Below, piece by piece: positions 6,020-13,805 of a DNA stretch of 24,715 nt. Every line of letters starts with the position of its first letter. Within the stretch, counting starts at the first letter, position 1. A program made the position numbers and the translations under genes. Under the pieces are notes generated by a model that saw only the letters and a list, made by a program, of their open reading frames with translations, searched no databases and was not told the DNA's origin. The stretch lies in the IMG/VR virus record IMGVR_UViG_3300017788_000010; one strand, 5' to 3'. Origin of the DNA: a virus (lineage: Duplodnaviria; Heunggongvirae; Uroviricota; Caudoviricetes).

Positions 6020-6057
6020 GCTTGCTGGAGTAGCTCAGTTGGTAGAGCTTTTGATTT

Positions 6058-6803
6058 GTTAGAATGATTTATTGTCTGCGTATCGTTGTCTTCGGACGTG
6101 TCGCCCAAAACCGCGATTTCTGCCCTTGTATGTAGATAGCTGTGAGTCACAGTTGTGGCATATGAGGCGTAAATTGGTTCTGTTGTTGTCGGTGTAGTCT
6201 CCATTGATATGGTCCAAAACAAAAAACAGTGGCTTGCCGTTCCAATTTCCTGGTTGGGCGCACAAGGCACATTTCTCTAGCTGGTCTTTCAATAACCAGG
6301 AACGGATAACGTCTCTTTGATAAGAAGAGATGCGCGTCTCCTGTCCTAATAACCAGCTGGCGATCTTTGTATCGGCCCTAAGTCTATGGAAGCATTCCAA
6401 ATTACAGAACCTCCGGTTAAGGGTACCTTTTCCGCAACTAAAACAACAAGAATCCTGGCGGAGTCTCGCTCTCTTAGGTTTCTTCCTGTTGTTGTAGCTA
6501 GCGGAGCAAGATCGAGAACAGAACGCGTTCACAGAACGTGCTTTGTCTTTTCGAGAAAACGTTATTTGACACTCAGCGCAGCAATAGGTCATAATACGGA
6601 CCTTTCTAGGGAAACCTATAAAGTGGACGCCGCTAAGTCGGGGAAACCTGTAAAATGGCAATCCCGAGCTAGCAGGTTCCTAAAAGAACCGGGCAAGTGT
6701 AGAGACTTTACACGGCGCACCCTAACGTAAAGCCGAGGGTGAAGAGAAAGTCCATCCCACTAGACTAGTGTAATGTAGTCGAACGAAAGTTCAAAGTGGG
6801 CAG
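6058..6803 (+). mobile_element. Group I self-splicing intron between tRNA positions 34 and 35
   Basis: P (AAGTCGGGGAAA 6635-6646), Q (AATCCCGAGC 6660-6669), R (GTAGAGACTT 6699-6708) and S (GAAGAGAAAGTCC 6741-6753) motifs; P7 GACTT/AAGTC; P3 CGCCG/CGGCG; GAAA-capped P9; terminal G; short P1 with a U34.G wobble. Confidence 0.88.
6059..6592 (-). CDS. HNH homing endonuclease with Cys-rich zinc-binding motifs, antisense within the intron
   Basis: CALC...LDHINGDYTDNNRTNLRLICHNC HNH signature. ATG at 6592 has an AGAAAGG SD and is preferred over the track start at 6661, which lies inside the ribozyme core. Confidence 0.85.
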   Translation of the reverse strand: MTYCCAECQITFSRKDKARSVNAFCSRSCSASYNNRKKPKRARLRQDSCCFSCGKGTLNRRFCNLECFHRLRADTKIASWLLGQETRISSYQRDVIRSWLLKDQLEKCALCAQPGNWNGKPLFFVLDHINGDYTDNNRTNLRLICHNCDSQLSTYKGRNRGFGRHVRRQRYADNKSF

Positions 6804-6849
6804 GTAATCAAAGGGTCATGGGTTCGAGTCCCATCTCCAGCTCCACACG

Positions 6850-7010: not shown

Positions 7011-7045
7011 TCCCTGGTAGCTCAATGGTAGAGCAGCGCTTGTTA
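7011..7045 (+). pseudogene. Orphan 5' half of a tRNA (Asn-like, GUU)
   Basis: TCCCTGG-TA-GCTC-AATGGTA-GAGC-A-GCGC-TT-GTT-A. The anticodon-stem strand is 1 nt short and no matching 3' half (CCAGGGA) was seen nearby. Confidence 0.5.
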
Positions 7046-7070
7046 TGCCTCCACATATCTGTACATATTT

Positions 7071-7436
7071 GTGTATATGGATACATTAGAAAAGCACATC
7101 ACTAAGACATGTAAACAGCACGGAGAGACGATATACACCTACGTACCGAGTAGGAAACACTACCGCTGTTCACAGTGTCTAGGTGTGGCCGTAACGAAGC
7201 GGCGTCGAAAGCTGAAAGAGCTTGCCGTGGCGTACCTGGGCGGCGCATGCGCTGTCTGTGGGTACAACAAATGCGTAGCCGCTCTAGAGTTTCACCACAG
7301 AGACCCTGTGGCCAAGGACTTTAGCATATCAAGCACGGGTACTACACGATCTTTTGATAAGATTAAAGTAGAGCTGGATAAGTGCTTGCTTCTCTGCGCT
7401 AACTGTCACAGAGAACACCACGCCGGCGTAGAGTAA
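7071..7436 (+). CDS. HNH endonuclease, free-standing
   Basis: CAVCGY...LEFHHRDP...LDKCLLLCANCHREHH signature. Start at 7071 or 7077. Confidence 0.88.
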   Translation: MYMDTLEKHITKTCKQHGETIYTYVPSRKHYRCSQCLGVAVTKRRRKLKELAVAYLGGACAVCGYNKCVAALEFHHRDPVAKDFSISSTGTTRSFDKIKVELDKCLLLCANCHREHHAGVE

Positions 7437-7448
7437 CCCCCCAAAAAC

Positions 7449-7579
7449 AGCCGGCCGTCGATTGTCCGTTACCTTTTCTGAAAAAAAAGAAGTCCTGGGT
7501 TCGAGTCCCAGCGGGTCCGCCTAACGGGCCTGTAGTTTAATGGTTAAAACAATGACTGGACCATCATCCTTTGCCGGCA
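7449..7579 (+). ncRNA. Y-RNA-like element Y5 with circularly permuted tRNA domain (YrlA-like)
   Basis: Closing helix GCCGGC 7450-7455/7573-7578. T-arm CTGGG-TTCGAGT-CCCAG (7495-7511), acceptor stem CGGGTCC/GGGCCTG closed by GCCTAAC, D-arm GTTT-AATGGTTA-AAAC; AGTC/GACT replaces the anticodon stem. Confidence 0.75.
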
Positions 7580-7623
7580 CCTCAAAGTGCGCCCGTAGCT
7601 CAGCTGGATAGAGCATTCGATTT

Positions 7624-8264
7624 TGCAAAGTCGGCTAAACTTGGTATACTATACCAAGCATGCTGACCACTGGGACCTATTTGTGGAAGATTGAGAAGAT
7701 AGTTAGTAAAGGAACCTATAACTACGCTGTGGTACGGAACCACCCAAAAGCAGACAAGCATGGGTACGTTTTGGAGCACCGCGTGGTAGTAGAAAACCAC
7801 CTGAACAGACTTCTCAATTCGGATGAAATTGTGCACCATAAAAATGGGCAGAAGAAAGACAACCGGATCACAAATCTGGAAGTACTAACTACCCTGGCGC
7901 ACAATCGTGAGCACAGTAAAGATGTCGGAAAAAGGTGGGTAACATTAAGGTGCCCAAACTGTTCCGCTCTTTTCGACAAGCCACGTAACCAAACTTTCCT
8001 GGATAAAGGAGGCGAGTCTACATGTTGCTCACGGCGATGCCGTGGTCAATTTAGTGCACGCATTCAGTACCAAGGAAGAACACAAATAGTGGAGGATGCC
8101 ATATCAGGGAATCTCGTACGGGAGTACCGCAAGTACTACCGCGACAACCCTGAGGAAACCGCCTAACTCGGGTTCCGCAGAGACTGTACGCATCCCACCT
8201 GAGACGGTGAAGATACAGTCCAGCCCACAACGCGAAAGCGGTCTACGTAAGTAGTCGTGGGAGG
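7624..8264 (+). mobile_element. Group I self-splicing intron, probably between tRNA positions 34 and 35
   Basis: P (ATATCAGGGAA 8101-8111), Q (AACCCTGAG 8146-8154), R (CAGAGACTG 8178-8186) and S (GAAGATACAGTCC 8209-8221); P7 GACTGT/ACAGTC; P3 5' strand GGATGC at 8094-8099 with a complement just after R; GAAA-capped P9; CCCAC/GTGGG as in the Thr intron. Confidence 0.87.
7660..8166 (+). CDS. Intron-encoded HNH homing endonuclease with C-terminal Cys motifs
   Basis: YVLEHRVV...EIVHHKNGQKKDNRITNLE HNH signature; CPNC and CCSRRC motifs. Confidence 0.88.
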   Translation: MLTTGTYLWKIEKIVSKGTYNYAVVRNHPKADKHGYVLEHRVVVENHLNRLLNSDEIVHHKNGQKKDNRITNLEVLTTLAHNREHSKDVGKRWVTLRCPNCSALFDKPRNQTFLDKGGESTCCSRRCRGQFSARIQYQGRTQIVEDAISGNLVREYRKYYRDNPEETA

Positions 8265-8338
8265 CTAATCGAATGGTCGTAGGTTCAAATCCTACCGGGC
8301 GCACCACCTACCCATGGGGCAATAAACATTATTTTTAC

Positions 8339-10125: not shown

Positions 10126-11697
10126 GTGACAAGATACGGACAACACACTACTTATACACAGAGGGAGCAGGCCCCGGGAACCGTTGCAAACAACGGCGGC
10201 GGCTTCTCCTTCCAATTAGACAAATGGAAACAACTCGATCGCTTTCTGATTTTAGGAAGTGAGGGCGGTACTTATTACGTTGGTGAGCGCAAACTGACCA
10301 GACAAAACGCCACCTGCATAGAGGCGTGCATACAAGAAGATCCGGCAAGGACTGTTCGCAGAATAGAGGAGATCAGCGTAGGTGGAAGAGCTCACAAGAA
10401 CGCGCCCGCCGTGTTCGCTCTCTCGCTGTGCGCCTCCAGCAAAAACCTCGCGGCGAGACAGCTCGCTCTAGAGGCAATGAAGCGGGTATGTCGCACCAGC
10501 ACAGACCTCTTCTCATTTATCGGCGATGTCCAGGAACAGCGTGGTTGGGGCCACTCGTTCAAAAAGGCTGTGTCGCGCTGGTATCTGAGCAAGACTCCTG
10601 AAGCCTTGGCCTATCAGCTGGTCAAATATCGCCAGAGAGAAGGGTGGTCACACAGAGACGCCATACGGCTCTCGCACCCTAAGGCGCATAACATCCCTAT
10701 GAACCACCTACTAGGGTGGGCGGTCGACAAGCACAACGACCTGTCCACGCTTCCGGCGTTGGTGCGGGACTTCACGGATCTGCAGACATGCTCCTCCGTG
10801 AAAGACGCTGTCCGTGTCATACAGCGCAACTCGGCGCTGACCTGGGAAATGGTGCCGACGGAGCTACTGGCGCACAACGCTGTGTGGCGCGCTCTGCTAC
10901 CGAACATGCCGCTGACGGCCATGTTGCGCAATCTCGGAAGAATGACCGCCTACGGTACACTAACCGAACTATCTGACGAAATCGCTACGGTTCGTTCGAA
11001 GATGTTGGATGAGACGTACTTGAAAAAGTCACGCGTGCATCCGATGGCTATTCTGAACGCGTTGCTGGTGTATGGAAAGGGGCACGGTCTCAAAGGCTCG
11101 CTATCCTGGACTCCTCAGCAAGAAATCAAAACAATACTCAATGAGGCGTTCTACCTGTCCTTCAAAACAGTGGAGCCCATCAACAAGAGCGTTATGATAG
11201 CGCTAGACGTTTCTGGTTCTATGGGTACCACCATAGGACAAAACGTTATGAGCTGCAGAGACGCTACGGCGGCGCTATCCCTAGTGACGGCCCGGACAGA
11301 GCCTCGCCATATAATCAAAATGTTCCAAAAAAGTTTGTCCGATTGCCCGATTGTGGCTGGCGATACGCTGGAAACAGCGATTCGTAAGATAAACGGGATA
11401 CCGTTCGGAGCGACAGATTGCGCCTCACCTATCACGTGGGCGACTGCGAACAAGGTGCCTGTCGACCTTTTCGCAATCTACACGGATAACGAGACCAACG
11501 GGTCGTCTATGCACCCTAACAAGGCCCTGGAGAAATACCAGCAGGCCATGGGCAGGGCTGCTAGAATGGTAGTGGTGGGTATGACCTCCACCGGGTTCAC
11601 CATAAGTGATCCGAACAATCCCAACTGTTTGGACGTTGTGGGGTTCGATACCGACACACCGAACCTGATCTCGGCCTTCGGGCGCGGCGAGATCTGA
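10126..11697 (+). CDS. rsr: Ro60 / Rsr ribonucleoprotein (TROVE domain plus vWA domain)
   Basis: N..GGFSF...LDRFLILGSEGGTYY, KYRQREGWSHRD, MPLTAMLRNLGRMT, HPMAILNA and vWA MIDAS motif DVSGSM ... TDNET: the full Ro60 signature set. Confidence 0.95.
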   Translation: MTRYGQHTTYTQREQAPGTVANNGGGFSFQLDKWKQLDRFLILGSEGGTYYVGERKLTRQNATCIEACIQEDPARTVRRIEEISVGGRAHKNAPAVFALSLCASSKNLAARQLALEAMKRVCRTSTDLFSFIGDVQEQRGWGHSFKKAVSRWYLSKTPEALAYQLVKYRQREGWSHRDAIRLSHPKAHNIPMNHLLGWAVDKHNDLSTLPALVRDFTDLQTCSSVKDAVRVIQRNSALTWEMVPTELLAHNAVWRALLPNMPLTAMLRNLGRMTAYGTLTELSDEIATVRSKMLDETYLKKSRVHPMAILNALLVYGKGHGLKGSLSWTPQQEIKTILNEAFYLSFKTVEPINKSVMIALDVSGSMGTTIGQNVMSCRDATAALSLVTARTEPRHIIKMFQKSLSDCPIVAGDTLETAIRKINGIPFGATDCASPITWATANKVPVDLFAIYTDNETNGSSMHPNKALEKYQQAMGRAARMVVVGMTSTGFTISDPNNPNCLDVVGFDTDTPNLISAFGRGEI

Positions 11698-13474: not shown

Positions 13475-13805
13475 TGACCCTTGCATTGTGGGCAGGCCGG
13501 CCTGTGCGGGGTCATATGTTGGGGGAGGTGGTCGACCGAAAGCGGCGACCTCCCCCATTTGCGTACTTCTACGTGGGCTAGGCCACGATAAACAGGTCTT
13601 TAAGCCTAGCGCGTTGAAAAGGTAGACGAGCCTTAGTATCTTTGCGACTAGTCACCGCTCTGATGCAAACGGCCCCGGAAGTTCTTATCCTGCTATAGAT
13701 CTTCTGAAAAAAAAAGCAGACAGCAGCGAGCTGTGGAAGAGCCGGGCACGGCTCTAGCACACAAAAGGCGGTGGGGGTTGCGCAACTCCCACCGCTTCTT
13801 TTTTT
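13475..13805 (+). ncRNA. Unassigned ~330-nt structured non-coding transcript
   Basis: Lies between a promoter motif and a terminator, has no credible ORF and contains several strong hairpins. Confidence 0.45.
13768..13805 (+). terminator. Intrinsic terminator
   Basis: GCGGTGGGGG/CTCCCACCGC stem plus TTCTTTTTT. Confidence 0.75.

Follow-up and report, generated by a model that had tools for sequence, protein, structure and literature searches.

A group I intron with a predicted canonical splice site and a reading frame shared between ribozyme and HNH endonuclease in the tRNA-Arg(UCU) gene of a probable large phage

The tRNA-Arg(UCU) gene at 7589-8306 of the window (the whole 24,715-nucleotide stretch of viral DNA analysed here, IMG/VR record IMGVR_UViG_3300017788_000010) carries a group I intron which is probably real and functional, and for which comparison with related introns points to an ordinary splice site. 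Very probably, it is an intact mobile intron of putative IC3 type between positions 34 and 35 of the tRNA, with a canonical splice site after U34, a homing HNH endonuclease and an internal promoter. The intron boundaries, the guide, P2, the overlap of the reading frame with the ribozyme and the preservation of that frame rest on sequence comparison; splicing, promoter use, the start codon, the activity and target of the nuclease, and the phage origin are predictions. The initial annotation had proposed non-canonical splice-site selection, alternative anticodons or a decaying intron at this locus; an ordinary guide (G7673-G7674-A7675) was found, and the headline of an odd splice-site choice with two anticodons from one gene falls, leaving a moderate significance. 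The features of the locus and of a neighbouring split tRNA-Thr gene are collected in Table 1.

Table 1. Predicted features of the two split tRNA genes, in coordinates of the window
Feature	Positions	Strand	Details and basis
tRNA-Thr(UGU), split at 34/35	6024-6845		group I intron 6058-6803, 746 nt
Antisense HNH gene in L1 of the Thr intron	6062-6592	-	177 aa
tRNA-Arg 5' exon	7589-7623	+	positions 1-34, ending U32-U33-U34; D loop A20; sequence and spliced product
Putative sigma70-like promoter site over the 5' splice site	7622-7650	+	-35 at 7622/7623-7628; -10 TATACT at 7645-7650, with TG
Group I intron at 34/35	7624-8264	+	641 nt; terminal G 8264
L1 insertion	7630-7667	+	stem 7630-7635/7662-7667 around hairpin 7640-7658; MFE, centroid and pair probabilities 0.77-1.0
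HNH endonuclease reading frame (P0001)	7660-8166	+	168 aa; HNH_3 at residues 40-83; cysteine pairs 98/101 and 123/127
Internal guide	7672-7676	+	placed by distance to P2 and family columns
P2 5' strand	7677-7685	+	9/9 pairs with 8081-8089; contains TTG 7681-7683
P2 3' strand, J2/3, P3 5' strand	8081-8099	+	8081-8089, 8090-8093 and 8094-8099
P4 around the P5 region	8104-8153	+	8104-8109 with 8148-8153; pair probabilities 0.85-0.97
P6/P6a	8154-8178	+	stop codon 8164-8166 in the P6a loop; sequence reading
Catalytic domain	8179-8221	+	sequence reading against family consensus
P9.0, P9, P9.1 and intron end	8224-8264	+	P9.0 8224-8228 with 8257-8261; P9 GAAA loop 8231-8240; P9.1 8243-8254
tRNA-Arg 3' exon	8265-8306	+	C35-U36-A37-A38 to A73 plus encoded CCA

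The split gene has an Arg-type body by sequence, with A20, a short variable loop and an encoded CCA. ARAGORN made no call on the unspliced gene in default mode and called tRNA-Arg(tct) once 7624-8264 was excised in silico; this product, a match to the Rfam Intron_gpI model at 8037-8236 (27 bits, E 0.003, under the gathering score of 50) and the core helices together back the original assignment as a tRNA-Arg(UCU) group I intron ending at 8264. Contig sets from two different studies, one of them possibly the source of the window, differ at 0 letters over the locus, which excludes an assembly error. The window is of freshwater origin and belongs to a contig that measures up to 131,963 bases, and the split gene is surrounded by a tRNA array with a Ro60 gene and a pistol ribozyme. 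No phage hallmark genes were identified within the window, and the host is probably a large phage. Contigs from three DNA runs held no intron-less joint of this tRNA-Arg gene, nor was an intron-less copy with an identical anticodon arm present in the viral contigs searched.

The intron has the P3-P7 pseudoknot core of group I introns, with P, Q, R and S strands and a G-binding pair. The pseudoknot helix P3 is formed by 8094-8099 with 8190-8195 (6/6 pairs) and P7 by 8180-8186 with 8216-8221, including the G-binding pair G8182-C8220, and a short P8 occupies 8196-8209; at the 3' end, P9.1 is followed by a two-base spacer and terminal G 8264. Assignment to IC3, a subgroup marked by P2, the lack of P7.1/P7.2 and simple P5 and P9 regions as in tRNA introns, is tentative: by eye the layout resembles bacterial tRNA seeds, from which the P2 loop and P8 differ. 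The features of the Arg.3Ug type are present, namely a site after the third loop base, a U before the site, a terminal G and a product that scores as Arg. Two other introns of the sample (L007 and L299) differ on both strands beside the G-binding pair, where their P7 is AGAGGCCA and the S strand has changed to match (TGGTCC).

Relatives were gathered both by protein and by junction patterns, giving 90 distinct introns at 34/35 that form 70 clusters at 90%, of which 42 bear a P0001-type HNH gene (27 short-loop and 15 long-loop) and 28 do not; the related introns are non-independent samples, and in the latter 28 the guide was chosen by pairing, so their guide columns are partly circular. All 42 HNH introns with intact exons, which were gathered by protein and not by junction, are inserted at 34/35 of tRNA-Arg(UCU). 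The proposal that both introns of the window target position 34/35 of UNU anticodons agrees with the sample as a whole (56 UCU, 9 UUU, 3 UGU and 2 UAU), in which the DNA junction patterns required A37-A38 and a short variable loop.

The location of the guide follows from P2. The two strands of this helix flank the body of the HNH gene, which is therefore enclosed in the P2 loop, and the guide lies directly 5' of the helix. Over the 42 intron clusters 340 of 378 P2 cells are paired, with diverse pair types, and the first five pairs are formed in 97% of cells versus 60% (maximum 68%) after exchange of strands among introns. In the resulting P2-anchored alignment U34 stands opposite a G in all 42 HNH-bearing introns; 41 of these have GGAG-C ahead of P2 and an exon ending C-U-U (C32-G, U33-A). 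The same columns in the window intron read GGGA-C with an exon ending U-U-U, such that U34 falls opposite G7673, U33 opposite G7674 and U32 opposite A7675, the U32-A pair being a two-sided change relative to the family C32-G. G7672 pairs with C35 in P10, the G7673-U34 pair is the wobble, and C7676 is conserved. The U.G pair that marks the 5' splice site in group I introns is therefore U7623.G7673 by the comparison of 42 introns, and the wobble which the initial annotation had placed at U32 moves to U34. Further, the base 5' of the wobble covaries with position 35, being G with C35 in 56/56, A or G with U35, U with A35, and C or U with G35 in 2/3, so that it tracks position 35 through Arg, Lys, Ile and Thr introns; C33 in one Thr intron faces G. 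At the 3' end, the terminal base is G in 70/70 introns, and the spacing of P9.0 strand, two nucleotides and G is found in 59/70, in keeping with the earlier observation that the terminal-G spacing resembles that of the Thr intron if the end is 8264. From this comparison, the true splice site of the tRNA-Arg intron is predicted to be the canonical one, after U34. That a canonical P1 might have been overlooked had been foreseen at the outset, and on comparative grounds one was, its guide being set by the distance to P2. A register one base nearer P2 (U34.G7674, U33-A7675) is possible, in which the cut would still fall after U34.

The P1 so defined is weak. It consists of U-A, U.G and U.G, i.e. 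tandem wobbles, with a duplex energy of +2.0 kcal/mol versus +0.5 for the family type, making it about 1.5 kcal/mol weaker, and slippage of the UUU exon end along the GGA guide is conceivable. RNAfold gave the true P1 a probability of 0.0, and energy folding predicted neither P1 candidate. A U33.G pair occurs in only 3/69 introns and U32-A in 2/69, both of the latter within the window; in one intron from outside the window (L265) U33 likewise faces G. When further U32 exons were sought by a loose pattern with GGACC after the exon, none of the matching loci contained an intron core. The second U32-A pair belongs to the tRNA-Thr intron, in which a GGA guide at approximately 6598-6600 stands opposite a UUU exon 540 nt downstream of the splice site; its layout of GGA, C and P2 is that of the Arg intron, with the addition of three Watson-Crick P10 pairs which fix the GGA register. 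That the weak P1 is common to the Arg and Thr introns suggests a tolerated or selected variant and not decay.

Three other accounts of the weak P1 and its surroundings were weighed. It is improbable that the tandem wobbles let some molecules be cut after U33, a cut which would yield a dead 6-nt loop if joined to C8265, and a GCU anticodon on an Arg body if joined to G8264 with 8263 as terminal G. Both sites are formally allowed, since U33 is opposite G7674 and the intron ends in two Gs, and a P1 some 1.5 kcal/mol below the family type would favour such slippage; however, the P10 of the GCU product would begin with a G.G mismatch, and a terminal G at 8263 violates the spacing of the 59/70 introns. 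The base before the terminal G is itself G in only 6/70 introns, and because just three of the 42 HNH introns have this second G the slippage to GCU is impossible in the other 39; the Thr intron, whose guide is identical and which has just one terminal G, also argues against it. Slightly less probable again is decay, by which a change of C32 to U weakened P1, splicing became poor or was lost, and the tRNA gene is dead. The guide is indeed unusual, and decayed relatives are known, with frameshifted or truncated reading frames (L023, L048 and L113) or a lost core (L078 and L106). Against this, position 32 is altered on both sides with pairing retained, two unrelated introns of the same genome have reached the same P1 solution, and P2 (9/9), P3 (6/6), P4, P7, P9.0, the other core helices and all tRNA stems are intact and the invariant HNH residues kept, an integrity which itself argues against decay.

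The remaining account takes a local hairpin as P1, with the site picked without, or away from, a U.G pair, and is very hard to credit. This is the initial annotation's seven-base-pair pairing of the exon with intron positions 7628-7634, which forms formally (7/7 pairs, the best of 18 long-loop introns) but is rejected by both folding and comparison. Folding of the full precursor sequesters its intron arm in the L1 stem through pairing with 7662-7667 (probability 0.98-1.0) and engages its exon arm with the 3' exon (1.0), leaving the hairpin itself at 0.0; in the nascent 5' fragment it reaches at most 0.17. It lies 40 nt too far from P2, and relatives do not have it, only 3-6 of the 7 pairs being formed there. 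Splicing after U32, for which the Leu.1Ug seed provides an example elsewhere, would require the terminal G to be position 8262, where the base is A. The hairpin would break the anticodon stem and is at most a transient misfold.

The HNH reading frame has its body in the P2 loop and its ends over ribozyme sequence, covering the L1 stem, guide and P2 at 7660-7685 (26 nt) and P2', P3, P4, P5 and P6 at 8081-8166 (86 nt including loops). The start of P3 at 8094 is codon 145, from which 24 codons span P3, P4 5', P5, P4 3' and P6, or 28 with the P2 3' strand; the claim that about 24 HNH codons double as ribozyme was thus correct, and the overlap proves larger, at both ends of the gene. The segment between P4 5' and P4 3', both included, has a length divisible by three in 27/30 well-anchored HNH introns across five lengths (42-54 nt; L090 and L094 were excluded for wrong anchors) and in 1/18 ORF-less controls, with a Fisher p of 4e-9 that is inflated by kinship. 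Indels in P5 preserve the reading frame, and the P6 segment varies by single bases. Codon choice shows the overlap codons to be under RNA constraint, Ser149, for example, being TCG in 37/40 and Glu165 GAG in 36. Across the guide, Gly-Ala is encoded in 40 guide-spanning homologues among those listed, with Gly-Thr only in P0001. Stops of the reading frame range from P5/P6 to past P7, which is read through in at least 11/42 introns (several wrong P7 anchors being excluded from the tally); such a variable stop within the core is the mark of core creep. By sequence comparison, this sharing between ribozyme and HNH gene is conserved through a large phage family.

At the protein level, P0001 matches PF13392 with 35.1 bits, over the cut-off, and H59, H60, N68, N72, H81 and H85 are invariant in 47 sequences, leaving the HNH motif intact. 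AlphaFold gave a mean pLDDT of 90.9, with a confident helix (142-149) and strand (152-158) and residues 165-168 below 50. In Foldseek the best match was I-HmuI, a weak one at E 0.009, with none under E 0.001. As sole query, P0001 found no intron relative in the viral contigs and, in annotated phage records, one partial match of 40%. In twelve free-standing relatives that have no ribozyme the I-x-x-N-hydrophobic-x-x-Y/F stretch is preserved, its codons varying more freely, and the DNPEET tail is absent. Since residues 142-158 are confidently folded and are kept in these relatives, where the tail is lost, the first half of the overlap looks to be protein-functional and the tail RNA-dictated.

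Ten of the 12 near-full-length free-standing relatives adjoin a called tRNA-Arg(UCU), often behind the 5' stump of another, and the HNH enzyme most likely targets the tRNA-Arg(UCU) gene near the anticodon. In eight loci with free-standing members of the HNH family (L016, L049, L051, L052, L080, L086, L103 and L104, around 1400-2100) a tRNA 5' stump lies upstream of the HNH gene and a replacement tRNA-Arg(UCU), or a tRNA-like gene bearing UCU, downstream. Free-standing and intron forms are intermixed in a poorly resolved protein tree, which does not prove several origins: the AU test does not reject grouping the free-standing long-tailed forms into one clade (p 0.059). Three Arg(UCU) introns of 240-300 nt (L272:11954-12330, L277:4210-4530 and L282 on the minus strand) have the HNH start and first codons with the body lost, and would represent the ORF-loss stage of a homing cycle.

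A sigma70-like site overlies the 5' splice site of the window intron, which belongs to the long-loop class. With 9/12 consensus matches it is by itself not above chance; a high promoter score at the equivalent position was found in 7/15 long-loop, 1/27 short-loop introns and 1/28 of those lacking a P0001-type HNH gene, and the long-loop count in 1000 shuffles had a mean of 0.6 and a maximum of 4. In the promoter-bearing long-loop introns the -35 box overlaps the splice site, and the site in the window is a predicted internal promoter of the HNH gene. The start codons are distributed along the same classes, as an ATG or GTG directly ahead of Trp9 is present in 26/27 short-loop and 3/15 long-loop introns, and an in-frame ATG in L1 in 14/15 long-loop introns. 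The short-loop start codon lies within P2, 5-6 nt past the GGAG guide, and in the window TTG 7681-7683 occupies that site; the HNH start codon is inferred to be ATG 7660 or TTG 7681. AGGAG is found in ORF-less introns too, since the guide is complementary to the anticodon loop, and the HNH gene appears to have co-opted this pre-existing guide as a Shine-Dalgarno sequence. Sequestered ribosome-binding sites are known from I-TevI to protect splicing; no description of a guide itself serving as ribosome-binding site was found in the literature searched.

In the proposed mechanism, the exons would pair in the anticodon stem of the precursor while P2 closes round the endonuclease gene, and the three-pair P1 (U32-A7675, U33.G7674, U34.G7673) would offer U34 to guanosine attack. 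With G7672 pairing to C35 and G8264 as terminal G, a single product, tRNA-Arg(UCU), would result. The HNH protein would cut intron-less tRNA-Arg(UCU) genes, leading to homing. As the reading frame runs through the guide and P2 to P6, a translating ribosome and a folded ribozyme are mutually exclusive; the window allele most likely avoids this conflict through mRNA from the internal promoter, which straddles the 5' splice site and would give an endonuclease mRNA lacking the 5' exon. A more tentative extension, held at rather less than even odds, is a fused family in which the guide serves as ribosome-binding site with a start codon in P2 and translation gated by splicing, a second class, to which the window intron belongs, has switched to an internal promoter across the splice site, and P2', P3, P4 and P5 encode a nuclease helix and strand that are kept. 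If true, a helix and strand derived from the ribozyme core would be retained even after the gene exits the intron.

Introns of the Arg.3Ug type in tRNA-Arg(UCU) have been catalogued in bacteria with the seed Rba190.Arg.3Ug (Williams 2020, bioRxiv 10.1101/2020.01.27.920355), and interrupted tRNA-Arg-TCT genes are present in Beggiatoa and Thiomargarita (PMC4853749). The window intron shares with Arg.3Ug the tRNA, the site after the third loop base, the U before the site and the terminal G, and the Rba190 seed has a GGAG-type guide ahead of P2 and the same P1 and core as the window family; the Lys.3Ug and Thr.3Ug seeds correspond to other intron types in the sample. However, the seed has no ORF, its P2 is capped by a GAAA loop and its P8 is long, whereas the window intron has a 395-nt HNH gene in P2 and a short P8, an L1 of 48 nt, exon U32, a GGA guide and probably a phage host. 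The cyanobacterial and plastid IC3 intron of tRNA-Leu(UAA) (Leu.3Ug) is also located at 34/35 and has a three-pair P1 of C32-U33-U34 with GAG, like the window family, but it interrupts a different tRNA, its seeds lack an endonuclease and its splicing is demonstrated, while that of the window intron is predicted from sequence. For the Anabaena intron, exon pairing in the anticodon stem is reported to be required (Zaug 1993).

Overlap between intron reading frames and the core, termed core creep, is also known, with 20 nt for I-TevI in T4 td and 81 nt as the largest tabulated case (Edgell 2011, PMC3073962). In the tRNA-fMet intron of Synechocystis PCC 6803 the I-Ssp6803I frame overlaps P1/P2 by 61 nt (Edgell 2011, PMC3073962, Table 1), a tRNA-intron endonuclease overlapping ribozyme helices as in the window; I-Ssp6803I, however, is a PD-(D/E)XK enzyme in P1, as opposed to an HNH gene in L2 with overlap at both ends. 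The same review predicts that overlapping extensions may be non-essential (Edgell 2011, PMC3073962); in P0001, residues 142-158 have a confident predicted fold and persist in free-standing relatives. The HNH_3 domain of P0001 is that of I-HmuI-type enzymes of phage introns, but I-HmuI resides in a DNA polymerase intron and P0001 carries cysteine pairs in its C-terminal part and is associated with tRNA-Arg(UCU); for homing in a tRNA region the comparison system is T4 SegB. The Arg.3Ug type in bacteria and core creep are therefore known already, and novelty lies in the likely phage host, in the weak P1, and in an HNH gene that is placed in L2, overlaps the ribozyme at both ends and occurs in the family with two expression layouts.

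A 2014 review described phage group I introns as confined to protein-coding genes (PMC3984707), and no description of such introns in phage tRNA genes was found in the literature searched, the coverage of which was incomplete. In contrast, the 42 clusters, from the present sample alone, interrupt tRNA genes on contigs of viral and metagenomic origin, where they are overlooked by default ARAGORN. The family offers a natural series, of which there are few prior examples, on the dispensability of core-creep tails and on translation of the reading frame versus splicing, and the GGA guide against a UUU exon is a probe of minimum P1 strength.

Several observations were made on other introns of the sample and on the rest of the window. 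Six introns at 34/35 of Lys, Ile or Arg tRNAs (L235, L251, L265, L270, L275 and L287), 630-920 nt in length, have no P0001-type HNH gene and must hold other insertions. Three viral contigs (L259, L267 and L292) each combine an Arg(UCU) 34/35 intron with another one inserted at 35/36 of a tRNA reading Asn(GUU). In a Blastocatellia genome, on a contig of 1.3 Mb, an HNH-bearing Arg(UCU) intron (L152:2365-3150) lies beside another tRNA. No viral relative was found for the HNH protein of the Thr intron in the window, and a plus-strand promoter-like site at 6566-6595 (11/12) overlaps the start of its gene. Between the two split tRNAs, 7011-7436 holds a tRNA 5' half (approximately 7011-7045), for which no matching 3' half is obvious, and then a free-standing HNH gene (7071-7436), an arrangement resembling the stump-plus-HNH cassettes of relatives. 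A weak match to YrlA (Y RNA-like) at 7492-7550 falls within 7449-7579, and several permuted tRNA-like elements similar to this region occur in the tRNA array. The Ro60/TROVE gene is at 10126-11697, and the pistol ribozyme at 13572-13627 scores 46.5 bits, over the Rfam gathering score.
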